A DNA stretch of 64,000 bases from an uncultured Bacilli bacterium (lineage in GTDB: Bacteria > Bacillota_I > Bacilli_A > RFN20 > DUOF01), in contig CALVUJ010000024.1 in the NCBI GenBank assembly GCA_944363575.1, forward strand, positions 144,107-208,106, read 5' to 3'. The translations under genes and the position numbers were made by a program. The first letter of the stretch is position 1. Every line of letters begins with the position of its first letter. Positions 15,538 through 62,350 of this stretch are shown piece after piece. The notes under the pieces are model-generated. The model was not told the origin of the DNA and searched no databases. It saw only the letters and a program-made list of their open reading frames with translations.

Positions 15538-15636
15538 TTTTAAAAAAAAGGTATTATAATCTAATAACCTTTTTTTATTTATAGATTATATTTACATTTT
15601 TTCTTTTTTAAAATATACTTAAAGAAAATAAGGAAA

Positions 15637-16233: not shown

Positions 16234-16269
16234 TAACTAAAAAAATATTTATACATATTAATAATTAGG

Positions 16270-16749: not shown

Positions 16750-16792
16750 ATCATAACTTCGCATAATATATATTATGTAATTTTTAAAGCAA

Positions 16793-16824
16793 TAAAAAAA
16801 GTATTCCTAATCGAATACTCTTTT
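16793..16824. terminator. Bidirectional intrinsic terminator between the hypothetical gene and metG
   Basis: The sequence aaaaaaa-AGTATTC-ctaatc-GAATACT-cttttattt has an A-run and a T-run flanking a 7-bp stem. Confidence 0.5.
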
Positions 16825-16826
16825 AT

Positions 16827-18422: not shown

Positions 18423-19615
18423 TTTATTGCCCCCTCAATATCCTCTAATAAAGAATCACCAATTTGATGATCTAACTTATTAATGCCAAAATTATCTATA
18501 ATTGTAGCACCTATACAGGCAAAAGTCATCCTTTCTTTTAATTCTTTCCCTTTTTTTATCTTATTATTATAAATAAGTAATGGTACCTGTTCCCTTGTAT
18601 GATCAGTTCCCTTATAACACGGATCATTACCATGATCAGCTGTAATTATCAATAAATCATCATCTTTTAAATATTTTAATAATTCTTCAATTTTATCATT
18701 AGTTTCTTTTAAGCAATTATAGTAACCAAGACTATTTCTTCGATGCCCATACTCACTATCAAATTCTACTAAATTAACAAAACATAATCCTTTAAAATCT
18801 CTTTCTTTACAAATTTCAATTGTCTTATTTAACCCATCCAAATTAGATTTAGTTTTACTAAAATCACTAATACCTTGTCCATTAAAAATATCATTAATTT
18901 TTCCAATAGCAATAACTTCAAAATTATTATCTTTTAAATTATCTAAATATGTTTTAGCAAAAGGACTAAGAGCATAATCATGCCTATTAGAAGTCCTCGT
19001 AAAATTATCTTTATTAGTACCAACAAAAGGCCTAGCAATAATCCTATCTACTTTCCATTTATCTTCTAAAGTAACCTCTCTTGCTATTTCACACATTTTA
19101 TATAATTCATCTAAAGGAATAACCGCATCATTAGCAGCCACCTGCAATACAGAATCTGCCGAGGTATAAACAATAGCTTCACCCGTTTTTAACTGTCTTT
19201 CACCTAACTCTTTAATAATTTCTGTTCCACTCGCACTCTTATTACCAATAATTTTCCTCCCCCATCTCTTTTCTAACACATCAATTAAATCTTGAGGAAA
19301 ACCCGTTTCAGTAAAAGTAATAGATGGCTTAGTAACTAAAAGACCCATCATCTCATAATGCCCAGTTAAAGTATCTTTACCCGCACTAGCTTCATTAAGC
19401 TTACATATAAGCCCTTTATAATCATTAATGTGATACTTAGCATCACTACTTAAATTCAAAAAACCCAACTCTTTTAAAGTATCAAGTTTTACTTCACTAG
19501 CGCTTTTTAAAACACTATTTAAAGTATTACTCCCTACATCATCAAATTTACTTGCATCTTTTCCATTTCCAATTCCAAGCGAATCTAAAACAATTAAAAA
19601 TATTCTTCTAAACAT
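18419..19615 (-). CDS. deoB: Phosphopentomutase
   Basis: The motifs LIVLDSLGIG, DTLTGHYEMMG and ITADHGNDP are present. Confidence 0.85.
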   Translation of the reverse strand: MFRRIFLIVLDSLGIGNGKDASKFDDVGSNTLNSVLKSASEVKLDTLKELGFLNLSSDAKYHINDYKGLICKLNEASAGKDTLTGHYEMMGLLVTKPSITFTETGFPQDLIDVLEKRWGRKIIGNKSASGTEIIKELGERQLKTGEAIVYTSADSVLQVAANDAVIPLDELYKMCEIAREVTLEDKWKVDRIIARPFVGTNKDNFTRTSNRHDYALSPFAKTYLDNLKDNNFEVIAIGKINDIFNGQGISDFSKTKSNLDGLNKTIEICKERDFKGLCFVNLVEFDSEYGHRRNSLGYYNCLKETNDKIEELLKYLKDDDLLIITADHGNDPCYKGTDHTREQVPLLIYNNKIKKGKELKERMTFACIGATIIDNFGINKLDHQIGDSLLEDIEGAIK

Positions 19616-20483
19616 TTATATCCTCCTCAACAAAATATTTATCATAGTTTTCAATAATATTACTTACATTCATATGTGTATATATCTCTGTTGTAGCAAT
19701 ACTCTCATGCCCAAGCATAACTTGCACAGCTCTTAAATTAGCCCCATTTTCTAATAAATGAGTAGCAAAACTATGCCTCAAGGTATGTGGAGATATCTTC
19801 TTATTAATATTCGCTCTTTTAGACAATTCATTAACAAGACAAAACACATACTGCCTAGTAACCCTTTTCCCTTTATTAGTTAAAAATAATAAACTATCAC
19901 TAGCCTTATATTTCAATTTATCTCTAACTTCTAACAAATACTTTTTAATACTTGCTAAAGCTATATCATTAATTGGAACAAATCTTTGTTTATTACCTTT
20001 ACCCTTACATTCTATCACTTTTTCTTCATTATGAACATCTTTAAGCTTCATATTTATAATTTCACTAACCCTTAAACCACATCCATATAAAACTTCTACA
20101 ATAGCCCTCATTAAATATTCATCATCTCTAATACTTCTAATTAATCTATCTACTTCTCCATAAGTTAAATAAACAGGCAATTTTTTCTCTTTTTTAGGAT
20201 GATCAACGTTATCAAACAAAACATAATCTACATATTTATTTTCATATAAAAAAACAAAATATTGTTTAATAGAAGTAATCTTCCTATTAAGCGAACTAAC
20301 CTTAATCCCCTTATCATTTAAATACTTCAAATAACCAAAAGAATCTTTACCCTCCTCATCATATTTAAAGAAATCTTTAATATCAATAATATAACTATTA
20401 ACGGAATTAATACTTAAACCTTTTTCCACCAACAAATATTGCTTATATAACTCTAAATATTTAATCATCATTACTAACCTCAC
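19608..20483 (-). CDS. xerD: Tyrosine recombinase XerD/XerC (RipX-like)
   Basis: The C-terminal catalytic motif is HTLRHSFATHLLENGANLRAVQVMLGHESIATTEIYTH. It is adjacent to deoB, as ripX is next to drm in Bacillus. Confidence 0.75.
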   Translation of the reverse strand: MRLVMMIKYLELYKQYLLVEKGLSINSVNSYIIDIKDFFKYDEEGKDSFGYLKYLNDKGIKVSSLNRKITSIKQYFVFLYENKYVDYVLFDNVDHPKKEKKLPVYLTYGEVDRLIRSIRDDEYLMRAIVEVLYGCGLRVSEIINMKLKDVHNEEKVIECKGKGNKQRFVPINDIALASIKKYLLEVRDKLKYKASDSLLFLTNKGKRVTRQYVFCLVNELSKRANINKKISPHTLRHSFATHLLENGANLRAVQVMLGHESIATTEIYTHMNVSNIIENYDKYFVEEDINV

Positions 20484-21639
20484 TAGCTTTCTTAAATACT
20501 TTATCGCCCACTAAATCATTCAATCTTTCAATAATTTTATCAATATTTTCTTTATTATCAATATTAATCTCAAAAATATTCATTTGCCTAATAATATCCT
20601 TCTTTTCCTTAAGATCATACAAAGTTATCCCAAGCAACCTAATAGGTTTATCATAATAATAATTGTTTTCTAACAATTTCAAAGCTTTTAAATATATCTC
20701 ATCATCATTACAAATAGGTTCATCAACTTTCATAGATCTATTAATATGCGTAAAATCATTAAATTTAATAGTAATAGAAATTCCAAAAGCTAAATTAGAA
20801 ACCAAACATATCCTTCTAGAAACACTTTTTGCTAATTCTTTTAACTCCTTCTTTATTTCATTTTCTTCAATTAAATCATTATAAAACGTCGTAGAATTAC
20901 CAATACTTTTAGCATCAACCTCATAATCAATAACTTCACTATCATCAATACCATTAGCCAAATTAACATAAACATAATAATTCTTACCAAGTATTTTCAT
21001 AACTTCATAATTATTTTGACAATTTGCTAAATCACCAATTGTAAAAATGCCTACTTCCTTTAACCTAGGTGCCGTCTTATTCCCTACACCATACATATCT
21101 TTAATATCTAAAGGCCAAAGCATCTTACTAACATCTCTTTTTCTTAAAATGGTAAACCCCATTGGCTTATGCATATCACTCGCCATTTTAGCTAAAAATT
21201 TATTAGGAGCAACCCCAATAGAACACCCCAAATTTAAAGTGTCTTTAATATGTTTTTGCATCTTTTTTAAATAACTAACAATATCACTACAATAATTTGT
21301 ATAATCAGAAAAATCTACATAACATTCATCAATGCTTGCAACTTCTATTTTCGATCCACACCACTTCTCTATAATATTAAAAAACTTCTTAGAATACTCT
21401 TTATAACTAGACATATCAACAGGGTTAATAATTAATTCTGGACACAATTTCAAAGCTTGCCCTACAGGCATTGCACTATGAACTCCTCTTTTACGAGCTT
21501 CATATGAACAAGTAGAAAGCACTCCCCTTTTAAGACTCCCCCCAACAGCATGAGCCTTTCCAATTAATCTAGGGTTTTTAATTTCTTCTACACTAGCAAA
21601 AAACGCATTTAAATCGATATGTAAAATGATTTTTGCCAT
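20461..21639 (-). CDS. dinB: DNA polymerase IV (Y-family, DinB)
   Basis: The motifs ILHIDLNAFFASVE and SIDECYVD are present. Confidence 0.85.
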   Translation of the reverse strand: MAKIILHIDLNAFFASVEEIKNPRLIGKAHAVGGSLKRGVLSTCSYEARKRGVHSAMPVGQALKLCPELIINPVDMSSYKEYSKKFFNIIEKWCGSKIEVASIDECYVDFSDYTNYCSDIVSYLKKMQKHIKDTLNLGCSIGVAPNKFLAKMASDMHKPMGFTILRKRDVSKMLWPLDIKDMYGVGNKTAPRLKEVGIFTIGDLANCQNNYEVMKILGKNYYVYVNLANGIDDSEVIDYEVDAKSIGNSTTFYNDLIEENEIKKELKELAKSVSRRICLVSNLAFGISITIKFNDFTHINRSMKVDEPICNDDEIYLKALKLLENNYYYDKPIRLLGITLYDLKEKKDIIRQMNIFEINIDNKENIDKIIERLNDLVGDKVFKKASEVSNDD

Positions 21640-21817: not shown

Positions 21818-22648
21818 TTAAATTGTTCTAACAAAGTAATTTTCTTTTTGTTTACTAACGTGTTCAAGTCTTAACCTATCAGCAATCATTGAAATAAATT
21901 CAGAATTCGTAGGTTTAGCCTTATACGCATTAATAGTATAACCGAAAATATCATCAATAGAATCTACATTACCTCTATTCCAAGCAACTTCAATCGCATG
22001 CCTAATAGCTCTTTCAACTCTAGAAGATGTTGTCTCATATTTCCTAGCAATTAAAGGATATAAAGTTTTAGTAATCTTCCCTTGCATATCCGTAGAATAA
22101 TACATCTCTTCAATACCAGTTCTTAAATAGTTATAACCCTTAATATGTGCAGGTATACCCACTTCATGTAAAATATGAGTAATATCATTTATTAACATAT
22201 TTTTTGTTAAATCACTACTTAAATTATTATCATTTCCTTTAACCATTAAAGAATAATGGTGTTTGGACTCACTACATACTAACTTACTAATTTTAGAAAT
22301 TAAAGAATCTAAATTATATGGTTTCATAACTAAAAGTTGCACTCCATATTCATTTAAAAAATCTAATAAACAATCATTAATTAAACCAGAAGTAACAATA
22401 ATATTTTTAACAACACACCTATAATCGTTCCTAATTTGCTTAATAATTTCAAAACCATCTAAAGAAGGCAAAACAGAATCAATCACCAATACATCAATAT
22501 CATGATACAAAGCAATCTTCTCTAAACAAACTTTACCATCACCTACTACATCAATTAAATTAATATTGTTCTCTAATTTAATCTTCTGCTTAATTTCTTC
22601 TTGTAATCTGACATTTGGTTCTGCTACAAGAAGATTAATTTCTTTCAT
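21818..22648 (-). CDS. spo0A: Sporulation master regulator Spo0A
   Basis: The C-terminal effector domain [22 protein letters not shown]...[18 protein letters not shown]...[17 protein letters not shown] is diagnostic. The receiver domain has Asp in VLVIDSVLP, and the Thr and Lys are present. The acidic pocket reads AEPN instead of ADDN. Confidence 0.85.
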
Positions 22649-29693: not shown

Positions 29694-31805
29694 TTACATA
29701 GCTAATAAGTAAACAGTCGTATTAGCAATAGCAATCATTGTAAACAAGAAAGTATTAAAGAATGCACTAGTCCAAACATTGTTTGTTTTCTCATAGAACT
29801 TTCTAGCAAAAATAGCAGCAACAGCAAGTGAAGGAATTAATCCAAATAACAAGATAGGTTCTAATGATAAATCAGCAACACCAGCTGTACCTGTAATAAA
29901 TAACTTTCCATAATGCCATGCTAAGAACAACAACAATCCACCAATATTTAATGCCAATGCATATAAATAACCTTTCCATCCCTTAACATTCTTCGTATTA
30001 CTTGTAACCACAATACTATTAATGAAATAGTATACAAAATAAACAGGAACATAACGTAAGAATGATACAAAATGATGCCATTCAAATGATTTAATTGCAT
30101 AAACCCATAATCTAAAGTCAGTATTAAATATCCAACCAACTAAGAATACAATTGCATATAAACCAACGAACAAAATAACGGAAATAAGAAAAGCTAAACA
30201 AACTTGTTTAAATGAAGCCACTAAACCATAAGATTTAATAGTAACTTCATCTTTCCTTCTTACGATGTAATGAACTATGACTAAAGTAAGTAAAGCAATA
30301 CCAGCACTAATTAATGCCCAAAAACCAATACTACTAGCAGTAGGTGCATTATAATAATAACCAGTCTTTAAAATATCAAAATTATTTGCTAAATAACGAA
30401 CAAATAATGCTACAAAACTAATCATAATAGCGCCTTTAGTAATACCCCATGCTACTTCACGAGATTTAACAGACTCTTCTTCCGTTTTAAACATTCTAGA
30501 AACAAGATAAATAATCCAACCTGCTACTGCAAAAACAGTACATATATAGATAATATCTTCCATTAAATCAGAGAACATTGGTAGTTTCTCACCTGAACTA
30601 ATGAATGTAGGGAAATAATAAGCAGGAATAAGTGAAGTAACAAGTGCTACAACAGCTAATCCTATTTTCTTTCCTTTTGAAGTTTCTTTCTCTACTGGAA
30701 TAGCAGAGTCATCTGTTCTAACTTTAGCAAAGAAAGGAACTTTTAATAACATAGCCAAAGCAGGAACAATAGCTACTAATAAACCTATCAAAGCGATAAA
30801 TTCAAAAGTTTCCTTTAACCACCATGTTTGCCCACCCATATCATCTGCAGAAAATTCACTAGCTAAACCAGCCTTTTCTAATTGATATGAGAAAGCTTCT
30901 TCATAGAAATCAATCATATAACCAGTAGTTTCTGTAGAAAAATGATTCCAAGGATGGATTTCATAAGGAGTATAAATAACTCTTTGTCCATCAGTAGCAT
31001 TTACTTCATAAATTTTACCTGCTTCAAACTCTTCATTTTCACTCAAAGTATATCCAGCAGATTTCAAGAAGCTTTGACCTTCTTCTGTTTCAACATAATC
31101 TTTATAACCAACCGTATTTCTTCCAAGTTCACCATCATCACCAAAGAACTCATCAAAATGTGCAAGAATCATACCAGATGATCTAGTACCATACATATTA
31201 ATAATAGACTCATTAGTATACCTATAATCAGCACCAACAGTTAAACTTACAGCAATCTTTAAATGACCTTGAGTACCATAAGCCAAAGTATCATACATAA
31301 CAGCCATTTCTGTTGAGAACCCACCCATTGAGTGCCCACTAACAGCTATCATACCATTACCATTAGCATCTTTTAAAGTATATGGCTGATCATAAACCCA
31401 CTTTACAGCATCCCATAAAGATACAGTATAAAAAGCGAATTGTGCAGGAGTTGTCCAAGTAGACTCTCCATGATCATACATATCTAATGCTAATACAATA
31501 TAACCCCTCTTAGATAATTCAATCGCAGGAGCATCTTGCATTTCTTTTGAGTTTAGATACCCATGTGTTGTAACAATTACAGGACACGGATTATCTTTAT
31601 CACACCCTTTTGGAGTGTAAAGTAAACCTTCAAGTTGTCCCTCATATTCTTCGCCAAAAGCAGTACCTTCTGTTTCAAAAGCCACATTTTTAACTTTTAC
31701 AGAATATAAGGAAGTATTAACCATATTAGCTAACAAACTAAACAAAATCACGACACCCATACAAAGAGTAAATAACCATACAGGTGTTTTTAAAATTTTT
31801 TTCAT
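29694..31805 (-). CDS. Exported alpha/beta-hydrolase fused to a C-terminal polytopic membrane domain (paralog B)
   Basis: It has a signal anchor, the VTTHGYLNSKEMQDAPAIELSKRGYIVLALDMYDHG segment and the nucleophile elbow GHSMGG. About 8 or more hydrophobic helices follow from residue 330 onward. The AAGGGGG ribosome-binding site lies 17 nt after the upstream paralog. Confidence 0.6.
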   Translation of the reverse strand: MKKILKTPVWLFTLCMGVVILFSLLANMVNTSLYSVKVKNVAFETEGTAFGEEYEGQLEGLLYTPKGCDKDNPCPVIVTTHGYLNSKEMQDAPAIELSKRGYIVLALDMYDHGESTWTTPAQFAFYTVSLWDAVKWVYDQPYTLKDANGNGMIAVSGHSMGGFSTEMAVMYDTLAYGTQGHLKIAVSLTVGADYRYTNESIINMYGTRSSGMILAHFDEFFGDDGELGRNTVGYKDYVETEEGQSFLKSAGYTLSENEEFEAGKIYEVNATDGQRVIYTPYEIHPWNHFSTETTGYMIDFYEEAFSYQLEKAGLASEFSADDMGGQTWWLKETFEFIALIGLLVAIVPALAMLLKVPFFAKVRTDDSAIPVEKETSKGKKIGLAVVALVTSLIPAYYFPTFISSGEKLPMFSDLMEDIIYICTVFAVAGWIIYLVSRMFKTEEESVKSREVAWGITKGAIMISFVALFVRYLANNFDILKTGYYYNAPTASSIGFWALISAGIALLTLVIVHYIVRRKDEVTIKSYGLVASFKQVCLAFLISVILFVGLYAIVFLVGWIFNTDFRLWVYAIKSFEWHHFVSFLRYVPVYFVYYFINSIVVTSNTKNVKGWKGYLYALALNIGGLLLFLAWHYGKLFITGTAGVADLSLEPILLFGLIPSLAVAAIFARKFYEKTNNVWTSAFFNTFLFTMIAIANTTVYLLAM

Positions 31806-31822
31806 TATTTACCCCCTTTCAA

Positions 31823-34129
31823 TTACATTGATAACAAATAAATAGTAGTATTAGCCACAGTAATTAATGTAAATAACATTGAATTCAAGAAGGCAGCAAC
31901 CCACACATTATTTGTCTTTTCATAAATCTTCTTAGCAAAAACAGCAGCTAAAGCAAGAGATGGTATTAAACCATACAATAAAATTGGTTGTAATGCAAGT
32001 GTAGGAAAAGCACCAACACCCGTTAAGAATAACTTACCATAATGCCATATTAAGAATAAGATTAATCCACCTGCATTTAATGCCATTGCATATAAATAAC
32101 CTTTAAAGCCCTTAACATCTTTAGTATTAACAGCTACAACAATAGCATTAATAAAGTAATAGATAAAGAATACTGGAGTATACTTTAAGAATGCCACAAA
32201 GTGATGAGCACCAAATGTTTTAACAGCATATACCCATAACCTAAAGTCTGTTTTAAAGATTAAATCAACTAAGAATACAATTACATAAATACCTACAATA
32301 ACAGCAAGAGCTAAAACAAATGCAATACCAACTTGTTTTAACGATGCCTTTAATCCATAAGACTTAATTGTAGCCCCATCTTTTTTATTTACAGTATAGT
32401 GAGTAATTACTAAAGAAAGTAAAGAAATACATGCACTAATTAAAGCCCAATAACCAATTGAATTAGTCGTAGGAGCATTCCACCAATATCCTTCTTTTAA
32501 AATATCTCCTGCATTAACACACAAATACCTTAAAGCTAAAGCAATAAGAGCAACAACTAAGCAACTCTTTGTAACTTTCCAAGCATAAGCACTTGCTTTG
32601 TTAGTAGTCTCTTCTCCTTTACTAACACGTGACACTATAACAGCAACCCATAAAGCTACAATTAATACAAATAAGATATAAATAATACCTTCAGCTATTC
32701 TAGTGAAAATACTCAAATCAGCTGATTTTGTAATAAATGTAGGGAAATAGTAAGCAGGAATAAGCGATACTAATAATGAACTTATCACTAAGCCAATCTT
32801 CTTACCTTTATTTGCCTTCTTATTATCTTCACTAACTTCTTCTTCACTAGTAACAGTCTCACCTTCAACAGTAACAACACTTGCAAAGAAAGGAACCTTT
32901 AATAATAAAGTAATCATAGGAATTATTGCTAAAAATAAACCTATCATAGCAACAAACTCAAAACCTTCCTTTAACCACCAAGTTTGTCCTCCACCACTAG
33001 TTAAATCTAACGCATTAAAATCTAAATCAGCATGTAATCCCATCTGATATTCAAATGCTTCATTGTAAAATTCAATCATATAAGCAGTAGATTCTGTAGA
33101 AAAATGATTTTGTGGATGTGTTTCATAAGGTGTATAAATAACTCTTTGACCAGTATATGTCTCACCAGTTGTTACATAATTACCATCATCATCTAATTTA
33201 ACATCATAAAACACCCCAGCAGCATATTCTTCATCAACACCTAAATTAGTACCATTACCTAAATAGTAACGGCCAGTATCAGTATCAACAAAATCTTTAT
33301 AAACAACTGTATCATTTGGGAAATTATAGCCTGAACTAGAATCACCAGCTACAATTTCACTACCTCTATCTAAAAAGAAAAATTCATCAAAATGACCAGC
33401 AATTGTACCACTAGTACGATCTGCATAAGTTGCTAAAATTTCTTCATGAGATTTAATAACTCTCATTTCTTCAGGAGTTCTAGCATCAGGTGACTCCATT
33501 CTTTTAAAGTCAGCACCTGCAGCTAAATTAATAGCAATCTTACGATGTGCCGTAGTAGGATCAGCAGCTACCATTTCTTGATAGTTCAATTCATCCCAAT
33601 AAATAGCAAGATGAGATGAAAAACCACCCATTGAATGACCACTAACAGCAATCATACCATCACCATCAGCAGCCTTTAATACATAATCTTTTTCATACAT
33701 TACCTTTACAGCATCCCACAAAGCAGTTTGCCAGAAAGTAAATGTAGCAGGAGTATCCCAAGTAGAATCTCCATGATCATACATGTCTAATGCTAATACA
33801 ATATAACCCCTCTTAGATAATTCAATCGCAGGAGCATCTTGCATTTCTTTTGAGTTTAGATAACCATGTGTTGTAATAATTAATGGACATGGCTTATCGT
33901 TACTACAAGTATCAGGCATATATAACAAACCAGAAAGTTTACCATTATTATTACCAGTCTCTAATGTAACTTCATCAACATCAACTTTATAAAATGAAGT
34001 ATTAGCCATTTGAGCAAAAATGCTTCCTAGTAATACAAGAATCATCGCCAATGATAATAACCATGTTGGTTTTTTAAAATTTTTCATAAAACTTTTAAAA
34101 CGACATTCTTTTTTTACATTTTCTTCCAT
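31823..34129 (-). CDS. Exported alpha/beta-hydrolase fused to a C-terminal polytopic membrane domain (paralog A)
   Basis: It has the same architecture as paralog B. The 35-aa TTHGYLNS...MYDHG block is identical and GHSMGG is present. The internal ATG at 34087 aligns with the start of paralog B and is an alternative start. Confidence 0.6.
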   Translation of the reverse strand: MEENVKKECRFKSFMKNFKKPTWLLSLAMILVLLGSIFAQMANTSFYKVDVDEVTLETGNNNGKLSGLLYMPDTCSNDKPCPLIITTHGYLNSKEMQDAPAIELSKRGYIVLALDMYDHGDSTWDTPATFTFWQTALWDAVKVMYEKDYVLKAADGDGMIAVSGHSMGGFSSHLAIYWDELNYQEMVAADPTTAHRKIAINLAAGADFKRMESPDARTPEEMRVIKSHEEILATYADRTSGTIAGHFDEFFFLDRGSEIVAGDSSSGYNFPNDTVVYKDFVDTDTGRYYLGNGTNLGVDEEYAAGVFYDVKLDDDGNYVTTGETYTGQRVIYTPYETHPQNHFSTESTAYMIEFYNEAFEYQMGLHADLDFNALDLTSGGGQTWWLKEGFEFVAMIGLFLAIIPMITLLLKVPFFASVVTVEGETVTSEEEVSEDNKKANKGKKIGLVISSLLVSLIPAYYFPTFITKSADLSIFTRIAEGIIYILFVLIVALWVAVIVSRVSKGEETTNKASAYAWKVTKSCLVVALIALALRYLCVNAGDILKEGYWWNAPTTNSIGYWALISACISLLSLVITHYTVNKKDGATIKSYGLKASLKQVGIAFVLALAVIVGIYVIVFLVDLIFKTDFRLWVYAVKTFGAHHFVAFLKYTPVFFIYYFINAIVVAVNTKDVKGFKGYLYAMALNAGGLILFLIWHYGKLFLTGVGAFPTLALQPILLYGLIPSLALAAVFAKKIYEKTNNVWVAAFLNSMLFTLITVANTTIYLLSM

Positions 34130-34340
34130 TAAAGAAAATTCCCTCCTTTTTATTTATATTTCCCAAAAAAATAAATAAAATAGCAAATTTTCCCTCCCTT
34201 CCTTTGTTATTTATTTTTCTGCAAAACAACAAAAGACACATAAAACAAAACTTAACTACAAATTAATTATAAAAAATAAAAAGCTTTTACTCAACTAAAT
34301 AAACCTTTTTTCTAGATATTTTTCTATTTATTTCCCAAAT

Positions 34341-34363
34341 AAAAAAAAGCAACATATGTTGCT
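34341..34363 (-). terminator. Intrinsic terminator of the TasA/SipW/AAA+ operon
   Basis: The perfect palindrome agcaacatatgttgct is followed on the minus strand by tttttttt. It lies 3 nt after the stop codon of the 83-aa ORF. Confidence 0.55.
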
Positions 34364-34366
34364 CCC

Positions 34367-34618
34367 TTAACCATGTAACCCGTTACTTTGCCTTTGCATA
34401 TCCTCAACCACAATATCAAAAATATCACCAATCGAGGCACAATATTTCAAAACTTCCCATGGAGTATTCGTATGAAAATGAATTTTAATCAAGTTTTCAT
34501 CCCCCACCACTAACAAACAATCACCTTCAATATTATTTCTAATATAATCACTAATATCATCTTCAGACAAATTATTTCCCTCTATCAATAACTGCGTATC
34601 ATACTTATACTCTAACAT
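34367..34618 (-). CDS. Small 83-aa protein, last gene of the operon
   Basis: An AGGAG ribosome-binding site is coupled to the upstream gene. The segment CLLVVGDENLIKIHFHTNTPW resembles the C-terminal domain of DAK2/FakA-type proteins. This is a weak, memory-based similarity. Confidence 0.4.
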   Translation of the reverse strand: MLEYKYDTQLLIEGNNLSEDDISDYIRNNIEGDCLLVVGDENLIKIHFHTNTPWEVLKYCASIGDIFDIVVEDMQRQSNGLHG

Positions 34619-34629
34619 TCTATCACTCC

Positions 34630-36288
34630 TTATTTACTATTCTTCTCTAATAAAACTTGTTTTCTTTTAGCTCTCTTCTCTTTATTAACCTTATTCATAG
34701 CCTCTACTTTTTTATCAATCTCTTTTATCTTAACCTCATAAACTTTAATTTTTTTCTTATACTTTACAATATTCTCTTTCCATGCCACTTGCATCTTCTT
34801 TAGATTAACAATTTCTTTTTTATTATCTACAACATTAACTTTATTATTAATTTCCTGCTTAAGCATATAAATAGTACCATGACTCTTTTCAATATTACTA
34901 TCACAAATCTTAATTTTATTCATTAAAACATTAATTCTATTATTAAAAATATATTTACGATCTCTAACCTTCTTAACAGCCTTAGACTCTTGCTCAATAA
35001 TAGCCTTTTCTTTTCTAATACGAGCCCTCCTCATCATCTCTTTACGAGCTTCACTCTTTTGCTTCAACAACTCATCAATTTCCTTTTGTTTCAGCCTAAT
35101 ATATTCCCTTTTATCATTTTCTATTTCCTTCAATTCTTGCTCTTTTTGCCTATGTTTTTCAATAGTAAGACTAAGCTGCTCCTTCAAATAAGCCTTCTCC
35201 TTAATTAACTCTTCTAATTGTTTAGCCTTATCTTCACCAAATAAATATGGATCAATCTCTTCTCTTACTTCCACATTCTCATTATTATCCATAACTTTTT
35301 TAATCTTTTTAATTTTATTATTTTTAATAACTAAATTAATAGATTTCTTTAATGCCTCATTATACTTTTCATTATCTTTTTGACAAGCATCAACTGCAGA
35401 ATACATATACATTATAGCCTTATTCATCTTCTTCTTATACTTATCAGTTAACTCAATAGGAATCTTCTCAACCCTAAAATCCAAAACCATACCCTCATAA
35501 TTACTAATATAATTCCATAAATTATAACAAATATTATAATTAGGCTCCTTAGTAATAATATTTGTTCTTTTAATTGCTCCTACTAAAGGCCTAGCCTCTG
35601 CTAACCTTTTCATAAACATACTACCATAAACTCTACCTAATGTTCTTCTAATCCATGCTACTCTTCTAAACAAATCATCCATCTTCATAATATCATCTTT
35701 ATTAAAATTATCCGTAACAATATCTAAATTCATCTCAAAATTAACCCTAGAATTCTTAATATTAAAAGTCGTTTTATTCTTTAAAGCCGTCAAAGAAGAA
35801 AAATCAATATCATCTAAAAACTCACTAAATCTCCTATCAAAAAAAGTAGCTAAATTTAAAATTAATGACTTAATAAAAATATTCTCATATAAAACAAAAT
35901 TATCATCAGATAACCCCGTCAAAATCCTTGTAGGAACAACCATTCCATCTTCATCAACTCTACTAATCAAATGAGAATGACTAGATAAATGCTTAATAGA
36001 AGCCGTACCCGTTTTCCTAGCTAACTCAACGGGAATAATTTCATAATCGGTCTTTAAAAACTGCTTAGGTGCTCTAGTAATAATATCAAGTGCTACTAAA
36101 CCATTCTCAATCATTTTCAAACACTCTTCATCATATTCCCTAACAACAACTTTAGTTATATGGTCAATTTTAATATCTGCTTTATCAAATCCATTACTAA
36201 ACAATGCATAAAAAGTATCATCTTTACCAACATTATCATGACGACGACTAAGTTTTTCCCAAAATCTCTTAATAATATCCACAGCCAT
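34630..36288 (-). CDS. Protein with a ~330-aa N-terminal domain and a long Lys/Glu-rich coiled coil; putative partner (McrC position) of the McrB-like GTPase
   Basis: It is translationally coupled, with an AGGAGG ribosome-binding site 6 nt after the AAA+ gene. Residues 330 to 552 are highly charged heptad-like repeats. No clear PD-(D/E)xK motif was seen. Confidence 0.5.
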   Translation of the reverse strand: MAVDIIKRFWEKLSRRHDNVGKDDTFYALFSNGFDKADIKIDHITKVVVREYDEECLKMIENGLVALDIITRAPKQFLKTDYEIIPVELARKTGTASIKHLSSHSHLISRVDEDGMVVPTRILTGLSDDNFVLYENIFIKSLILNLATFFDRRFSEFLDDIDFSSLTALKNKTTFNIKNSRVNFEMNLDIVTDNFNKDDIMKMDDLFRRVAWIRRTLGRVYGSMFMKRLAEARPLVGAIKRTNIITKEPNYNICYNLWNYISNYEGMVLDFRVEKIPIELTDKYKKKMNKAIMYMYSAVDACQKDNEKYNEALKKSINLVIKNNKIKKIKKVMDNNENVEVREEIDPYLFGEDKAKQLEELIKEKAYLKEQLSLTIEKHRQKEQELKEIENDKREYIRLKQKEIDELLKQKSEARKEMMRRARIRKEKAIIEQESKAVKKVRDRKYIFNNRINVLMNKIKICDSNIEKSHGTIYMLKQEINNKVNVVDNKKEIVNLKKMQVAWKENIVKYKKKIKVYEVKIKEIDKKVEAMNKVNKEKRAKRKQVLLEKNSK

Positions 36289-36303
36289 CTTCTTAACCTC
36301 CTA

Positions 36304-38175
36304 TTATACTTGTTTTAATAATTCATTAATATACTCAATAGAATCTGCAAAAACACCCTTACCAAACTCTTTATCCAAAACATTTAATAAGCCTTTTAAT
36401 TCATTCTTAATAAATGAAATATTTAAAGCTTCAAGTTTATGTAAAATCTTTCTAGTTAATAAATGGTCAACTGCTTCATATTCACTACCACCACATCCCA
36501 TATAACAAGGAACAAATCTCTTTATTTGCTTCATAATACGGTTACCAAAAGAAATCTTAAAGTTAGTAATCATATACTTATCTACATTAGCTAACTTTTG
36601 TAAAGTCTCTTCACTAATCGCATACTTAGTACAAGCATCATCAAATAACTTCTCAAAATATTCACTAGTCATTGTAATACTATCAGCATCAAACTCAGGC
36701 TCAAATGCTACTGTCTTTTTATTTAAAGACATTGACATCGCACGGTCATAAACTTTATCGGTAATAAGGAAAGTAGAATCATCATTATTCGCCGTACCTA
36801 AAAACCAAACATTTTTAGGAATTAGCAACTTACCGTGATCTAACAAAATAGGATCACCCTCCATAGTAGTATTAATAATTTCTATAATCCATTCATCTCT
36901 ATTAGGCATTTCCATAATAGACAAGAAATCAGCAAAATAATACTCAATACGAGCTAAGTTCATTTCATCAAGTACAAGTATCATTGGCTCTTTATGTTTC
37001 GCACATGTATATAGTTCCTCCAAAAAAGCCGACTCATTAAACTTCTTTGTAAATTCATTTAAATAACCCAATAATTCAGATCTATCTTTCCAGGATGGTT
37101 GAACTGCTACAATTGGTGTCCTACTCTTAAAAAACTTACCAAAAGCATAAGGAAGTGAAGTTTTACCAGTACCAGATATACCCTCCAAAATAGCAAAGTG
37201 AGTGGTACCTAACCCCGCAAAAAACAATGCCAAAGTTCTAAAACTATAGTACAACTTAAGCTTACCTGCTGCAAAGTTTCTAAATCTTTTAACTAATTGC
37301 TCTAAAGTAATTGTTTTTTCTTCTTCACTCATTTCAGGAAAAGAATAATTACGATAATCAAAATCAATTGTAATAAGCTTAGGAAAACGAGCTTTCTCTA
37401 GTACTTCTTTAGGAAGTCTCTCCTTACCATCTTCTTCATCTACTACTTCAACTTCTTCTACAGAATCATCTTCCTTATCTTCGCTATCAACAGGAATTGG
37501 ATACCCATTAACATCAAATAAAAACTTCCCTTTTTTATCTTTTTTAAACTCAATAAGAGGAATAGGTTTCTTATTCTCATCTAATAAAACATTACCCTCT
37601 TCATCTTTTTTATACTCTAACTCAATCTCAGGAAAACCATTCTTACCAAATTTAGGTCTCCCTTTTTTATCAACTTTAAATTTAAAACCAACAGTCTTAA
37701 CTCCATCAGGATTAAGAATAGCCTCTTCTGCTCTCTTTCTCGCATTTTCCATATTCTTAAGATCTTCTTTAGTAGGAGCATACCCTAACTCTGCAACCTT
37801 TAAAGATAAAAGTTGACTCCTCTCATCCATCAAATCAATAACCTTATTATTCAAAGTTTCAATTTCCCTTAACAAAACAATCTTATCTTTAACCTTTCTT
37901 TTAGCAATATATCTTCTTTTAGAAACCCTAACAATTAAATAAACCAAAGCACCAATTGCCGCTACAAAAACTAAAATAGAAAGAACAAATAAAACCCAAC
38001 CTAGAAAATCAAAACCATCTGAATACAAATCAAAAACAGACTTATAATAAGAAAAATTACCAATAATAGCTCGCCATACAGAAACTAAAAAATCAATTAT
38101 TAACTTAAAAAAATCAATAATATCCTCCCATAATACTTTAAGCAATCTCCCAATATACTTACCAAACGCTGCCAT
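36304..38175 (-). CDS. Membrane-anchored McrB-like AAA+ (AAA_5) GTPase with an N-terminal transmembrane segment, a coiled coil and a Lys-rich linker
   Basis: The Walker A motif is GISGTGKTS. The McrB-type Walker B motif is ILVLDEMNLAR. The McrB signature FLGTANNDDSTF is present. The ATG directly abuts the sipW stop codon (TAAATG). Confidence 0.65.
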   Translation of the reverse strand: MAAFGKYIGRLLKVLWEDIIDFFKLIIDFLVSVWRAIIGNFSYYKSVFDLYSDGFDFLGWVLFVLSILVFVAAIGALVYLIVRVSKRRYIAKRKVKDKIVLLREIETLNNKVIDLMDERSQLLSLKVAELGYAPTKEDLKNMENARKRAEEAILNPDGVKTVGFKFKVDKKGRPKFGKNGFPEIELEYKKDEEGNVLLDENKKPIPLIEFKKDKKGKFLFDVNGYPIPVDSEDKEDDSVEEVEVVDEEDGKERLPKEVLEKARFPKLITIDFDYRNYSFPEMSEEEKTITLEQLVKRFRNFAAGKLKLYYSFRTLALFFAGLGTTHFAILEGISGTGKTSLPYAFGKFFKSRTPIVAVQPSWKDRSELLGYLNEFTKKFNESAFLEELYTCAKHKEPMILVLDEMNLARIEYYFADFLSIMEMPNRDEWIIEIINTTMEGDPILLDHGKLLIPKNVWFLGTANNDDSTFLITDKVYDRAMSMSLNKKTVAFEPEFDADSITMTSEYFEKLFDDACTKYAISEETLQKLANVDKYMITNFKISFGNRIMKQIKRFVPCYMGCGGSEYEAVDHLLTRKILHKLEALNISFIKNELKGLLNVLDKEFGKGVFADSIEYINELLKQV

Positions 38176-54484: not shown

Positions 54485-54979
54485 TTATGCTTTAAATGAT
54501 ACACTAGGAACATACTTATTACCTAACTTTTCATAAGCAATTTTAATAATGTTAACAGCATCACTCTTACTAGCATCTTTCTTAGCAACTAAAATATTAA
54601 CTACATTATCTTCATACTCTACATAAGCATTACTATATCCTGCTTCCTTTATAGCTTGCTTCAAACTTTCTTCTTCCTTAGTCATCTTCTTCTTATTAGC
54701 AATCATCTCCAAAGCCTCAATCTTTTCTTCCATAGTAGCACTACTAGAAGCAACAATTTGATTCAACTCATCAATATCATCATTAATCTTACTAACCTTA
54801 GCCAACTCTAAACTCTCAAAATAAGCATCCTCACCATCACTAACACTAACAACGGCATCTTCCCCACTAGTAGGATTCTCTAAAGTAGCGTTATTTACAG
54901 GAACTAACACATAATAAATAGCAAGAACTAACACCAAACTAAACAAAGATAAAAACGAGATTAAACGACGATTTTTCAT
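54485..54979 (-). CDS. spoIIIAH: SpoIIIAH-like membrane protein (N-terminal transmembrane segment plus YscJ-like extracytoplasmic domain)
   Basis: An N-terminal transmembrane helix is present. The C-terminal segment AIKEAGYSNAYVEYEDNVVNILV resembles the SpoIIIAH KGY..V....V.V motif. Its position upstream of asp23 and nusB matches Bacillus. Other spoIIIA genes are not nearby. Confidence 0.45.
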   Translation of the reverse strand: MKNRRLISFLSLFSLVLVLAIYYVLVPVNNATLENPTSGEDAVVSVSDGEDAYFESLELAKVSKINDDIDELNQIVASSSATMEEKIEALEMIANKKKMTKEEESLKQAIKEAGYSNAYVEYEDNVVNILVAKKDASKSDAVNIIKIAYEKLGNKYVPSVSFKA

Positions 54980-55047: not shown

Positions 55048-55851
55048 TTATAAATTTTTATCACAAAAAACTAAATTACTAATAATCTCTTCACCTAAAT
55101 AACTAGAACAATATTCAACACATTCCTTATAACTACTTATTTGATTCCTAAAATGAGCATCTACACCATACACTACCTTAACATGATATTCACTAGCAAT
55201 CTTCCAAAATTCTTTACAAGGATAAGCTATCTTCTTACTCTCCTTAACCAAAAACATTGCAATTCTAGTTAAGTTAATTTCTAATGGTACACCATACTTA
55301 ACTGCACTCTCACAAATAATTCGTGTAGCCCGTTGCTCAGTTTCACCAAATCTCTCACTAGATAACATAAATAAATCAGGATGAGCCACGATATCTACAA
55401 GCCCTTTTTCCATAGCTTCCTTCACCAAATAAGCATACCTTAACACATCCTCACTAGAATTACTACTATACCCAATTATCTTAAAATTACTACCATCATC
55501 ATCACAAACAAAATGTTGCCCTAAAATCATTTTATCTGTCTCTTTTTTTAATTGCTTCAAATATTCTTCTTCACTAGGAACATATTCAAACTCAAAACCA
55601 ACTTCTATATCAATTAAAATTTTATACTTTTCTTTTAAAGTTTTAATACTCTTATAATATTCATCTTTCATCGAATAATCCATACGCATATTATTTCTAA
55701 AATCAATTTTATTCATAAAAGGAACATGATCCGTAAAAGCAATCTTCTTAAAACCATATTCAATAAACATTTTTACATATTCTTCATCAGACATACTCAT
55801 ATCCGCATGCCCACATCTATACGTATGCGTATGATAATTAAAATCTTGCAT
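55048..55851 (-). CDS. PHP-domain phosphoesterase (histidinol-phosphatase HisJ family)
   Basis: The PHP metal-binding motif YHTHTYRCGHA is present. Confidence 0.6.
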   Translation of the reverse strand: MQDFNYHTHTYRCGHADMSMSDEEYVKMFIEYGFKKIAFTDHVPFMNKIDFRNNMRMDYSMKDEYYKSIKTLKEKYKILIDIEVGFEFEYVPSEEEYLKQLKKETDKMILGQHFVCDDDGSNFKIIGYSSNSSEDVLRYAYLVKEAMEKGLVDIVAHPDLFMLSSERFGETEQRATRIICESAVKYGVPLEINLTRIAMFLVKESKKIAYPCKEFWKIASEYHVKVVYGVDAHFRNQISSYKECVEYCSSYLGEEIISNLVFCDKNL

Positions 55852-55900
55852 AATATACCCCCATTTAACAAAAAGGTAATGCTTTAAACATTACCATAAT

Positions 55901-57664
55901 TTATTCCAAAATTGCTTTAATTCTACGAACCCCAGCACTACTAGCTTCTTCTTTAGTAATCTTAAAATGCCCTAACTCGCTAGTATTACTAACATGTGGC
56001 CCACCACATAATTCTTTAGAAATATCACCAATCTTATAAACCGTAACAACATCACCATACTTTTCAATAAACATAGCTTCTGCTCCCATCTTCAAAGCTT
56101 CTTCTTTATTCATTTCTAATTTCTCTACTTCTAAACTTCTACTAATATACTCATTAACCAAGTCTTCCGTTCTCTTCAATTCTTCACTAGTCATCTTACT
56201 ATCATGAGAAAAATCAAAACGCATTCTCTCTACCGTAATATTACTACCTTTTTGATGAACATGATCCCCTAAAACAACTTTTAAAGCTGCATTCAATAAA
56301 TGAGTAGCCGTATGATACTTAGTCTCCATTTCCCCAGTAGATGCTAACCCGCCTTTAAACTTACCTGCTGCTCCTTGTCTAGACTTCTCTTGATGCTCCA
56401 TAAACTTTACTTTAAACCCTTCTTCATCAACTTTAATACCCTTTTCTCTAGCAAGTTCAACCGTTAACTCTAAAGGAAAACCATAAGTATCATATAACTT
56501 AAAAGCATTAGAGGCATCAATAACCCTACTAGATAACCTACTAACAATCTTATCAAATTCTTTTAACCCTGTCTCCAAAGACTTAACAAACTTCTTTTTC
56601 TCTAAACTAATTTCCTCTAAAATAATTTTCTCATTTCTCTCTAATTCTTTATAAGTACCTTTAAGCTTATCTATAAACATCTTACAAATAACTAAATCAA
56701 AATCACTATTAACATCCATATTTAACTTACGTGCATGCCTAATAGCTCTCCTAATTAACCTACGCACAACATAACCCTGATCAGTATTTGAAGGTTTAAT
56801 AAGTGCATCATCACCACAAATAACTACTACACTACGATAATGATCAGCAATAATACGCATGCTAGCCTTATTATTGTCATCCTCATAAGATAAACCAGAT
56901 AACTCCTCTATCTTCTTAATAACATCTTTAAATAAAGAAGTCTTATAATTATCATCTACATTTTCTAAAACAGCAGTAACCCTCTCTACTCCCATACCAG
57001 TATCAACATTTTTATTCTTTAAAGGCTCAAAAGTATTATTCTCTAAATGATTGTACTGCATAAAAACATTATTCCAAATCTCAACCCATCTTTTATCACT
57101 AGGATCAAAAACCTCAGGAACTTCCTCATCACTTCTAAAATAAAAAATCTCCGTATCAGGACCACAAGGACCCAAAAGCTCCATATTAGGCCACCAGTTA
57201 TCATCTTCTCCTAAAAAAGCAATTCTCTCTTCTTTAATTCCTAAACTTTTCCAAATAGAAGCACTCTCTTCATCTTTACCAACTAAATCATTACCCTTAA
57301 AAACCGTAACAGCTAATTTACTAACAGGAATATTTAAAATCTTAGTTAAAAATTCAAAACTCCAACTAATAGACTCTTTCTTAAAATAATCTCCTAAAGA
57401 CAAATTAAATAACATATCAAAAAAAGTATGATGATAACTATCACCAACAGAATCCAAATCATTCGTTCTAAAACACTTTTGCACATCTACTAACCTTGTC
57501 CCTAAAGGATGCTTAGCACCCTTTAAATAAGGAATAAGAGGTTGCATACCCGCTGTATTAAATAAACATGTAGGATCATTCTCAGGAATAACAGAACTAG
57601 AAGGAATAATCACATGACCTTTACTCTTAAAAAAACTTAAATATTTCTCTTTTAAATCTAACAT
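55901..57664 (-). CDS. alaS: Alanyl-tRNA synthetase, short 587-aa form (catalytic core fused directly to the HxxxH/CxxxH editing module; no C-Ala domain)
   Basis: Class II AlaRS motifs FNTAGMQP and HHTFFDMLFNLSLGDYFK are present, as is LYDTYGFP. The editing motifs are HTATHLLNAAL and CGGPHV. The gene ends 49 nt before the next gene. Confidence 0.75.
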   Translation of the reverse strand: MLDLKEKYLSFFKSKGHVIIPSSSVIPENDPTCLFNTAGMQPLIPYLKGAKHPLGTRLVDVQKCFRTNDLDSVGDSYHHTFFDMLFNLSLGDYFKKESISWSFEFLTKILNIPVSKLAVTVFKGNDLVGKDEESASIWKSLGIKEERIAFLGEDDNWWPNMELLGPCGPDTEIFYFRSDEEVPEVFDPSDKRWVEIWNNVFMQYNHLENNTFEPLKNKNVDTGMGVERVTAVLENVDDNYKTSLFKDVIKKIEELSGLSYEDDNNKASMRIIADHYRSVVVICGDDALIKPSNTDQGYVVRRLIRRAIRHARKLNMDVNSDFDLVICKMFIDKLKGTYKELERNEKIILEEISLEKKKFVKSLETGLKEFDKIVSRLSSRVIDASNAFKLYDTYGFPLELTVELAREKGIKVDEEGFKVKFMEHQEKSRQGAAGKFKGGLASTGEMETKYHTATHLLNAALKVVLGDHVHQKGSNITVERMRFDFSHDSKMTSEELKRTEDLVNEYISRSLEVEKLEMNKEEALKMGAEAMFIEKYGDVVTVYKIGDISKELCGGPHVSNTSELGHFKITKEEASSAGVRRIKAILE

Positions 57665-57823
57665 ATATAGACCTCTTTTCTTTTACTAGCATATTCTAGC
57701 AACAAGACAAAAACAAGTCAATTATTACTTTATTTTAAAATAACTTTAGCCTATAATTAATAAAAAAACAAAATTCAAGTTAATTTCAATAAATATTTTC
57801 TACAATAAAAAAGGGGTGAGATA

Positions 57824-60351: not shown

Positions 60352-62094
60352 TTAAATATTATATTCTTTGCTATTAATTACTTCTTTTATCTTCTTCAAT
60401 AATTCTTCTTTACTACAAGTTATTGTTTCTTTACTACCATACAAACGATAACTAACTAAATTATGATCCTTTTCATTATCTCCAATAATTAAAGTAATAG
60501 GCACCTTCTTAGTTTGTGACTCTCTCATTTTATAAGAAAGCTTCTCTTCTCTATCATCTAACTTAACTCTAACATCATTACACTTAAAATACTCAAACAA
60601 TTCCTTAGAATACTCTAAATGATACTCATTATTTACAGGAATAACATTTACTTGAACAGGTGCTAACCAAAGAGGAAATGCTCCTGCATAATGCTCAATT
60701 AAAACCCCCATAAATCTCTCAATTGAACCAAAAATAACACGATGAAGCATGATAGGCCTTCTCTTACTACCATCTTTATCAATGTAAGTTAAATCAAATC
60801 TTTCAGGCAAGTTCATATCAAGTTGAATCGTTCCACATTGCCATTCTCTTCCAATAGAATCTCTAATATGGAAATCAAGTTTAGGACCATAAAAAGCCCC
60901 ATCGCCAGGATTAATTTTAAACTCTCTACCAGCCTTTTTACAAGCACTAGCTAAAGCTTCCTCAGACTTATTCCAAATAGCAATATCACCAATATACTTC
61001 TCTTCAGGTCTAGTAGATAACTCAATCGTAAACTCTAAATTAAATACCTTATAAAATCTTTCAATAAAATGAATTAAACGAATAACTTCTTCTTCAATTT
61101 GATCTTCCCTCATAAAAATATGAGCATCATCTTGTGTAAAAGTTCTAACTCTAAATAACCCACTTAACGCTCCACTTGCCTCATGTCTATGAACTAACCC
61201 TAACTCACCACACCTAATAGGTAAATCTTTATAAGAATGAATACTATTTTTATAAGCTAACATACCACCAGGACAATTCATAGGTTTAATTGCAAATACT
61301 TTATCATCTATCTCACTAGTGTACATATTTTCCCTATAATTAGCCCAATGCCCACTAACTTCCCATAACTCTTGATTTAACATAATTGGAGTCTTAATAA
61401 ACACATACCCTTCTTTTTCATGCTCTTTATACCAAAAATTCTCTAACTCATTACGAATAATCATCCCATTTGGTAAAAAGAAAGGAAAACCTGGGCCATA
61501 TTCACTAATCATAAATAACTCTAACTCTTTTCCCAATTTACGATGATCCCTTTTCTTAGCTTCTTCAAGCATCGTTAAATACTCACTCAAATTTTCTTCA
61601 TTATCAAAACAGATACCATATATTCTTTGAAGCATCTTATTTTTAGAATCTCCCTTAAAATAAGCTCCATTAACCTTTAATAACTTATAATATTTTAACT
61701 CCTTAACACTCTCTACATGAGGACCTCTACATAAATCAGTAAAATCGCCTTGACTATAACAACTAATAACATTACTATCATCCATATTATTAATCAAATC
61801 AATTTTATACTCATCATCTTTAAACATTTCCAAAGCTTCTTTTTTACTAATTTCTCTTCTAACAATTCTCTTCCCATCTTTAGAAATCTTTTTCATTTCC
61901 TTTTCAATCTTTTCTAAATCTTCTTCTTTAATAACTTCTTCTCCTAAATCAATATCATAGTAAAACCCACTCTCAATAACAGGACCTACCCAAAACTTAG
62001 CCTTTGGATATAAATGCTTAACAGCTTGAGCCATCAAATGAGCACAACTATGATTCATCACACTAAGTTTTTCATTTTCTTTAATATTAATCAT
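60352..62094 (-). CDS. thrS: Threonyl-tRNA synthetase (lacks the N-terminal TGS domain)
   Basis: The editing-domain motif HSCAHLMAQA is present. Class II motifs and the anticodon-binding C-terminus are present. Confidence 0.9.
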   Translation of the reverse strand: MINIKENEKLSVMNHSCAHLMAQAVKHLYPKAKFWVGPVIESGFYYDIDLGEEVIKEEDLEKIEKEMKKISKDGKRIVRREISKKEALEMFKDDEYKIDLINNMDDSNVISCYSQGDFTDLCRGPHVESVKELKYYKLLKVNGAYFKGDSKNKMLQRIYGICFDNEENLSEYLTMLEEAKKRDHRKLGKELELFMISEYGPGFPFFLPNGMIIRNELENFWYKEHEKEGYVFIKTPIMLNQELWEVSGHWANYRENMYTSEIDDKVFAIKPMNCPGGMLAYKNSIHSYKDLPIRCGELGLVHRHEASGALSGLFRVRTFTQDDAHIFMREDQIEEEVIRLIHFIERFYKVFNLEFTIELSTRPEEKYIGDIAIWNKSEEALASACKKAGREFKINPGDGAFYGPKLDFHIRDSIGREWQCGTIQLDMNLPERFDLTYIDKDGSKRRPIMLHRVIFGSIERFMGVLIEHYAGAFPLWLAPVQVNVIPVNNEYHLEYSKELFEYFKCNDVRVKLDDREEKLSYKMRESQTKKVPITLIIGDNEKDHNLVSYRLYGSKETITCSKEELLKKIKEVINSKEYNI

Positions 62095-62099
62095 AAACT

Positions 62100-62350
62100 T
62101 TCCCCCTATTCATTAATATTAACTCATAAAAAAAGAGTTCCTAACATATAGGAACTCTGTATAAACAAAGCGGTACCATCCTACTTCATAGAATATCTAT
62201 GCTCTTAATTTGTTATTAACGCTAACTAACGCTACTCCATTACAGGTAGAACTCCTAGGTAGTAACTATATATCTTCCTTATTAGTTTTCACCAACCACT
62301 AACTCTCTACAAATTCCAACATATAATCATGTCCTAATCAACATTCGCTA
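62100..62350 (-). promoter_or_regulatory. T-box riboswitch leader of thrS (specifier ACU, Thr) with a terminator hairpin
   Basis: On the minus strand, Stem-I-like AGAGAG...GUGA is followed by the specifier context gaaaACUAau at 62284-62286. The T-box sequence gaagtaGGATGGTACCGCtttg lies at about 62171-62190. The terminator hairpin agagttcctatatgttaggaactct is followed by ttttttt at 62127..62158. A sigma-A promoter TTGCTT-17-TATAAT lies at 62352..62380. Confidence 0.75.

Follow-up and report, generated by a model that had tools for sequence, protein, structure and literature searches.

A small alanyl-tRNA synthetase without beta-barrel and C-Ala domains in the genome of a spore-former-type gut Firmicute

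In the usual account, alanyl-tRNA synthetase (AlaRS) is one invariant four-domain prototype across cellular life, with the prokaryotic C-Ala domain serving dimerisation and tRNA binding (PMC8887476, PMC8583063). The prokaryotic C-Ala consists of helical and globular subdomains, through which the enzyme dimerises and binds the elbow of the tRNA (PMC10036535, PMC8583063). A mini-AlaRS without C-Ala nevertheless charges tRNA and sustains the growth of yeast (PMC10036535); as counterpoints, a review holds that bacterial AlaRS needs C-Ala-mediated dimerisation to charge tRNA (PMC8583063), and the N461 fragment of the E. coli enzyme is a poor tRNA binder (PMC10036535). A further compact version, named small-AlaRS, has been described in a preprint as comprising the catalytic, ATL and editing domains only, without the cradle-loop barrel and C-Ala (bioRxiv 10.1101/2023.05.29.542759). 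That preprint places it in CPR, Thermoplasmatota, DPANN and Asgard groups and has the archaea acquiring it from bacteria (10.1101/2023.05.29.542759). The family is a large bacterial set that does without both the barrel and C-Ala, known from annotation databases and this one evolutionary preprint; we found no biochemical data on the enzymology of any small-AlaRS in the searchable literature.

Here we analyse an alaS gene from a 64-kb stretch of DNA (the window) belonging to a low-GC, spore-former-type gut Firmicute with a Clostridium-like genome, in which Spo0A, SpoIVB and SpoIIIAH are present. Judged from its sequence and a structure model, the gene encodes a natural three-module small-AlaRS that is most likely the housekeeping AlaRS of the bacterium, a reading to which we give a probability of roughly 0.8. 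The architecture itself is already known, both as a curated NCBIfam equivalog and under the name small-AlaRS in the literature, and there is no new kind of enzyme here. The features of the gene and its surroundings are collected in Table 1.

Table 1. Features of the small-AlaRS gene, with positions in the 64-kb window
Feature	Position	Strand	Basis
Small-AlaRS coding sequence, complete	55901..57664	(-)	587 aa + stop; ORF list and NCBIfam NF002436
Class II catalytic domain, ~residues 1-245, including the VDTGMG alanine-binding motif	56930..57664	(-)	Alignment, Foldseek
Helical tRNA-recognition (ATL) domain, ~residues 246-433	56366..56929	(-)	BLASTP to E. coli; helical in model
Basic, glycine-rich junction GKFKGGLASTG, residues 434-444	56333..56365	(-)	Model pLDDT, motif count
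AlaX-S-like editing core, residues 445-587	55904..56332	(-)	tRNA_SAD, AlaXM model, Foldseek
HxxxH zinc/editing motif, H451-T-A-T-H455	56300..56314	(-)	Invariant in 24-sequence alignment
CxxxH zinc/editing motif, C553-G-G-P-H557	55994..56008	(-)	Invariant in 24-sequence alignment; C553 ~ E. coli C666
Four base differences from the 99.97%-identical strain; amino-acid changes E83D, G86F and W88L, strand FFEMLGNWSLGDYF	57402..57416	(-)	DNA and protein comparison
Promoter-like site TTGACT-17-TAGAAT, extended -10 TG	57693..57721	(-)	Consensus scan, 10/12 matches
Ribosome-binding site AAGAGG, 7 nt 5' of ATG	57672..57677	(-)	Read directly from sequence
Terminator-like hairpin, 9-bp stem then TTTTTG	55875..55895	(-)	Scan and sequence

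The ORF runs from an ATG to a C-terminus ending in RRIKAILE directly before the stop codon. A preliminary description of this DNA had credited the product with a full aminoacylation and tRNA-recognition core followed by an HxxxH...CxxxH editing module near the C-terminus, and with the loss of both the beta-barrel linker and C-Ala. All of this is borne out by comparisons with profiles and with the E. coli enzyme. Pfam tRNA-synt_2c covers residues 4-436, reaching profile positions 2-436 of 552 only (E=1e-134), and tRNA_SAD covers residues 540-582 (E=8e-20), with HTATH at 451-455 and CGGPH at 553-557. BLASTP against E. coli AlaS yields just two blocks, one pairing query residues 3-433 with E. coli 7-441 at 40% identity and the other pairing 432-585 with E. 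coli 538-698 at 47%; therefore, E. coli residues ~442-537 (the beta-barrel) and 699-876 (C-Ala) are without counterpart, and the ORF stops where E. coli AlaS has residue ~700. In an alignment of the window protein with 57 other short and 75 long forms, it places 12 residues in the columns of E. coli 442-545, as against 86-131 in canonical forms, and none in those of E. coli 701-876. The protein hence departs from the canonical prototype, in which a beta-barrel accompanies the editing domain and C-Ala follows.

Residues 3-430 align to the catalytic fragments of A. aeolicus and E. coli AlaRS (E=1e-97 and 1e-92), and the motifs VDTGMG, PSN and YDTYGFP are conserved with E. coli AlaS; in one otherwise invariant strand of the core, however, this allele has the changes E83D, G86F and W88L (see below). 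By alignment, the E. coli residues N303 and D400, which read the G3:U70 pair, correspond to N293 (in PSN) and D392 (in YDTYGFP), the former being invariant in an alignment of 24 diverse short forms. The same alignment shows H451, H455, C553, H557, Q471 and R581 to be invariant (24/24), with R581 falling in the neighbourhood of E. coli R693. The genes for tRNA-Ala, which we sought in order to check for G3:U70, were found neither in the 64-kb window nor in 60 short-form loci.

An AlphaFold2 model, built from the 24-sequence alignment of diverse short forms, attained a mean pLDDT of 89.1 and a pTM of 0.70. In Foldseek searches, residues 1 to ~430 fit the catalytic fragments solved for E. coli, A. 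aeolicus and human AlaRS with target TM scores of 0.86-0.91 (0.87-0.91 for 3hxu, 1riq and 9jdn). The C-terminal module matches the whole of AlaX-S (1v7o, 1v4p, 1wnu; TM 0.83-0.87) and AlaX-M in the C-domain only (TM ~0.5); likewise, the NCBIfam AlaXM model is matched at profile positions 96-233 of 234 only. The model has no beta-strands from the helix at 414-437 to the helix at 445-465. On this combination of alignment and modelling, the C-terminal module is predicted to be a minimal editing core of the AlaX-S type, devoid of the beta-barrel and with the four zinc ligands of the Ser/Gly-tRNA(Ala) editing site kept.

The position where the beta-barrel would be is taken by the junction, as part of a linker of ~15 residues, with a pLDDT below 50 at residues 434-442. 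Of the short-form cluster representatives, 44/57 have a motif with GG there, of the pattern [KR]F.GGL[AS][DE]; this junction is therefore conserved, though predicted to be disordered. We also considered whether KFKGGLA might be what remains of the glycine-rich GGQ loop in the barrel. On this, MAFFT, phmmer and global hhalign disagree with near-zero confidence, placing KFKGGLA at the start strand or at the last strand of the canonical barrel depending on the method, and we dropped this homology because the alignments conflict without confidence.

The window protein belongs to an established family. NCBIfam NF002436 (PRK01584), a 595-position equivalog named 'alanine--tRNA ligase' with a curated cutoff of 529 bits, matches residues 3-587 at profile positions 5-593/595 with 799.5 bits (E=1.8e-240); the general alaS model TIGR00344 is also passed, at 606.7 against a cutoff of 457. 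The best 120 of thousands of homologues from a word-indexed search are almost all 585-590 aa in length and 73-100% identical, and derive mostly from gut metagenomes. The description of the 587-aa product as unusually short consequently stands with respect to the canonical ~870 aa but not within this large curated family, where it is the standard length. The best 150 of an exhaustive search of representatives (clusters at 50% identity) include 57 short-form cluster representatives of 560-660 aa and 39-65% identity, and canonical forms of 840-940 aa rank among them. The same two segments are absent from 58/58 short sequences, the window protein included, with ~12 residues in place of E. coli 442-545 and 0-10 in place of E. 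coli 701-876. In a neighbour-joining tree of 534 shared columns, which is a distance tree from a biased sample, a single split parts the 58 short from the 75 long sequences. The tRNA-recognition and editing domains of the short forms are on average ~3 charges more positive (nominal p=0.001 and 4e-6, for sequences that are non-independent); any case for charge compensation is weak because the values of the window protein itself are +2 and -4.

The short form is also broadly distributed, being present at 63/80 genome loci among the matches listed. These comprise ruminant and human-gut Clostridia and Bacilli metagenome-assembled genomes (MAGs; 57-67% identity), MAGs labelled Christensenella and Oscillospiraceae, those of Treponema, Spirochaetales and Sphaerochaetaceae, many Patescibacteria (Saccharibacteria, Peregrinibacteria, Paceibacteria, Gracilibacteria and the complete 602-kb Kazan genome CP011216.1), and Lentisphaeria, Kiritimatiellales and several DPANN-labelled MAGs. 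Borrelia burgdorferi and Treponema pallidum probably have an AlaRS of ~600 aa and are not known to carry another copy. The earlier suggestion of a minimised AlaRS is supported by the end-to-end match to NF002436, the shared deletions, the single clade and the purifying selection on the gene (see below); the minimisation is old and widespread and not particular to the source genome.

At the level of the locus, alaS lies in a conserved housekeeping block made up of hrcA-grpE-dnaK-dnaJ, lepA, purA, xseAB, nusB, pepP, asp23, spoIIIAH, alaS, a two-component system and thrS, and a 1.03-Mb contig from the human gut keeps the synteny around an orthologue of 84% identity. The promoter-like site upstream of alaS is the top-scoring hit of the consensus scan in the region, as a consensus match only. 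No T-box or other leader was recovered 5' of alaS at E<=1; the neighbouring thrS, unlike alaS, has a tRNA-sensing leader upstream. The terminator-like hairpin begins 5 nt past the stop codon of alaS, and the next gene, noted before as following 49 nt downstream, indeed begins 49 nt past that stop; it encodes a PHP-domain, histidinol-phosphatase-like protein (55048..55851). Compared with the 84%-identical orthologue, dN/dS is 0.10 for alaS, 0.07 for thrS and 0.17 for pepP, all from the same genome pair with a dS of ~1.1, which is near saturation. On these sequence-based estimates, alaS is under purifying selection comparable to that on thrS.

The particular allele in the window carries a peculiarity of its own. 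An 18.1-kb stretch from an independent assembly, 99.97% identical to the window, also has the short alaS, and an NCBI-derived collection holds a 100% identical protein. With respect to a 99%-identical protein, the window protein differs at three residues (E83D, G86F and W88L), all in the invariant strand FFEMLGNWSLGDYF; G86 is invariant in 132/132 other AlaRS compared, short and canonical alike. At the DNA level, 6/18,100 positions differ between the window and the 99.97%-identical stretch, 4/6 of them within 15 bp and the others at 52032 and 50728, and the plus strand of the window reads A at 6/6 of the differing sites where the other strain has C at five and T at one. Rather than to selection, this all-A pattern points to ambiguity codes that were resolved to A, or else to a consensus that is damaged or of low coverage. 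Hence, from the sequences compared, the cluster is probably a sequence error. If real, the three substitutions could impair catalysis by this exact allele; the family assignment is unaffected by them.

At ~290 aa below the canonical length, the protein could at first sight come from a canonical alaS that is truncated or has been altered by an assembly error or a frameshift. The deletions, however, are two separate segments, of which one lies inside the gene and keeps the frame, and over 100 homologues of 585-590 aa stop at the identical C-terminal residue. Profile HMMs of the beta-barrel and C-Ala, built from those segments of 75 canonical AlaRS, gave zero matches in six-frame translations of the 64-kb window, and the same HMMs readily detected every canonical AlaRS among the fetched loci. 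A tblastn search of the window with E. coli AlaRS found no second alaS, AlaX or C-Ala, the editing domain of thrS alone being matched. A frameshift, which the preliminary description had already discounted, is excluded because a hairpin follows the stop, over 100 homologues end alike and there is no downstream remnant in any frame of the window. With an unrelated PHP phosphatase gene as neighbour and independent assemblies holding the same gene, we regard truncation as refuted.

Two other alternatives accept the gene as intact and differ as to what it does or what it works with. The protein might be a second-copy paralog, with a canonical ~870-aa alaS elsewhere charging the tRNA and the short protein acting as an auxiliary, such as a stress isoform or in resistance or tRNA-dependent biosynthesis. 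AlaRS-like enzymes with non-translational roles are known (PMC12945691); moreover, our survey of AlaRS genes spans the 64-kb window only, and alaS is devoid of the T-box or tRNA-sensing leader that adjoins thrS. Several lines of evidence point the other way: in NCBI's curation the family is an AlaRS equivalog; the residues for catalysis, for reading G3:U70 and for editing all appear conserved; the constraint is as strong as on thrS; and the neighbourhood is a housekeeping one with no biosynthetic cluster. Further, since genomes with the short form can be very small, including the complete one of 602 kb, spare synthetase paralogs are improbable in them, and, as a weak indication, 0/16 barrel-bearing loci share an assembly with a short-form locus among the matches listed, which include neither the species of the window nor that of its 84%-identical relative. 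On balance, a paralog is unlikely. By analogy with the AlaRS of Nanoarchaeum equitans, which works as two polypeptides (PMC10036535), the enzyme might instead be split, with the beta-barrel and/or C-Ala supplied in trans by a separately encoded protein, for example one of the AlaX-L/AlaXp-II type with editing and C-Ala. Free-standing proteins with editing and C-Ala do exist, such as the DHHA1 protein of Clostridium perfringens (3kew). Against this, the barrel and C-Ala HMMs match nothing in the window or within +/-6 kb of the 63 listed short-form loci; a trans partner would therefore have to be unlinked in every lineage examined. A split enzyme is very unlikely.

Returning to a housekeeping small-AlaRS, we advance the following mechanism for its action. 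By sequence and model, a complete aminoacylation unit with the G3:U70-reading residues is joined by the ~15-residue linker to a minimal zinc-dependent editing core, similar to the one with which AlaX-S hydrolyses Ser-tRNA(Ala); this core would carry out the editing of Ser- and Gly-tRNA(Ala) in cis. Having neither the coiled coil nor the globular domain of C-Ala, the enzyme would be a monomer with no clamp on the tRNA elbow; with C-Ala absent, its affinity for tRNA would derive from contacts with the acceptor stem. The Tupanvirus mini-AlaRS and N453 of A. aeolicus operate by such recognition of the acceptor stem only. The acceptor end of the tRNA would then swing between the synthetic and the editing sites on the flexible linker.

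A stronger version, which we put forward as tentative and rather doubtful, holds that a spore-forming gut Firmicute, and not ultra-reduced symbionts alone, depends on small-AlaRS as its sole AlaRS; the enzyme would be a monomer indifferent to the elbow, and its KFKGGLA junction a functional element replacing the role of the barrel. The junction might then act as a hinge, as a loop completing the editing pocket, or as a guide for the CCA-end between the two sites. If true, a sole elbow-independent monomer would contradict the textbook need for C-Ala-mediated dimerisation in bacterial AlaRS. In any event, the window shows the short form in a Clostridium-like gut genome of the spore-former type, and offers a clean, compact gene as a test case for elbow-independent, monomeric charging combined with cis-editing.

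Set beside the known systems, the window protein shares with small-AlaRS and NF002436 the three-module layout, the end-to-end HMM match and membership of one clade with the other short forms. It differs as to the host: in contrast to the lineages listed in the preprint, the window copy belongs to a gut Firmicute of low GC content and spore-former type, and spirochaetes were found here as well. With the canonical E. coli AlaS (876 aa; TIGR00344) it has in common the core (40% identical), the editing core (47%), the zinc ligands and an equivalent of R693, whereas it is without the ~100-aa beta-barrel and the ~175-aa C-Ala that dimerises and binds the tRNA elbow.

Among other compact versions, the C. 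elegans mitochondrial AlaRS is comparable as a natural enzyme whose C-Ala is no more than residual (PMC8887476). It differs in being a eukaryotic organellar enzyme suited to T-armless tRNAs, and its abstract hints at no barrel loss (PMC8887476). The Tupanvirus mini-AlaRS (PMC10036535), E. coli 461N and A. aeolicus N453 work without C-Ala and rely on the acceptor stem, as the window protein would. These three are without an editing domain, whereas the window protein has tRNA_SAD with its four zinc ligands; moreover, the conserved Asn and Asp are gone from the Tupanvirus enzyme but kept in the window protein. Finally, AlaX-S (P. horikoshii PH0574; 1v4p, 1v7o, 1wnu) shows the same minimal barrel-less fold with the HxxxH and CxxxH motifs; however, it is free-standing and acts in trans, whereas the window protein carries its editing core in cis, on one chain with a complete synthetase.

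The small alaS, whose 587-aa product lacks the beta-barrel and C-Ala domains, shares the window with other abbreviated synthetases: a ThrRS without the N-terminal TGS domain, in which the editing (tRNA_SAD) domain forms the very start of the protein; and a MetRS reduced to the catalytic and anticodon-binding domains, the C-terminal tRNA-binding appendage being absent. Counting MetRS, this single 64-kb window thus holds three compact synthetases. Unlike the ThrRS gene, alaS has no T-box leader. Outside the window, locus L080 holds a longer AlaRS reading frame that matches the beta-barrel HMM and gives no C-Ala match; it may be intermediate in architecture, or the gene may be truncated.

Positions of the features discussed (window coordinates unless stated)
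Feature	Position	Strand	Remarks
SpoIVB homologue	1157-2170		
AbiEi-like antitoxin gene	15637-16233		close to GC skew flip
MetRS	16827-18422	-	531 aa
XerC/D-type tyrosine recombinase	19608-20483		close to GC skew flip
Spo0A homologue	21818-22648		
Four ORFs	29694-38175	-	Pfam
SpoIIIAH homologue	54485-54979		
Terminator-like match	55994-56009	+	CGGPH-motif codons
Differences from L086	57402-57416, 52032, 50728		DNA comparison
ThrRS	60352-62094	-	580 aa
T-box leader ahead of ThrRS gene	62147-62350	-	93.3 bits; gathering score 93
AlaRS reading frame of L080	5890-8043 (L080)		718 aa; MAG labelled Alphaproteobacteria

Within alaS, the terminator-like match is no real signal: it arises solely from the palindrome that the codons for CGGPH form (ATGTGGCCCACCACAT). 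Against the contig of another strain (L086; 99.97% identity), 6 of 18,100 bases differ, four of them clustered in a 15-bp stretch inside alaS, where they result in E83D, G86F and W88L in an invariant motif. At all six sites the plus strand of the window carries A, against C or T in the other strain, a pattern suggestive of ambiguity codes that were resolved or of errors in the consensus.

Elsewhere, the GC skew changes sign near 16 kb, positive values giving way to strongly negative ones, coincident with a switch in gene strand, and the stretch at ~14000-20500 may be a replication terminus region. Of the four ORFs, which lie in DNA of slightly higher GC content (0.32) than the remaining window, the large neighbouring ones of 703 and 768 aa show only weak N-terminal alpha/beta-hydrolase matches, and those of 552 and 623 aa match no Pfam family.

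Finally, the SpoIVB, Spo0A and SpoIIIAH homologues in the window show that the host, with a GC content of ~28%, is a spore-former-type Firmicute, a kind of host missing from the host list of the preprint that named the small AlaRS (bioRxiv 10.1101/2023.05.29.542759).
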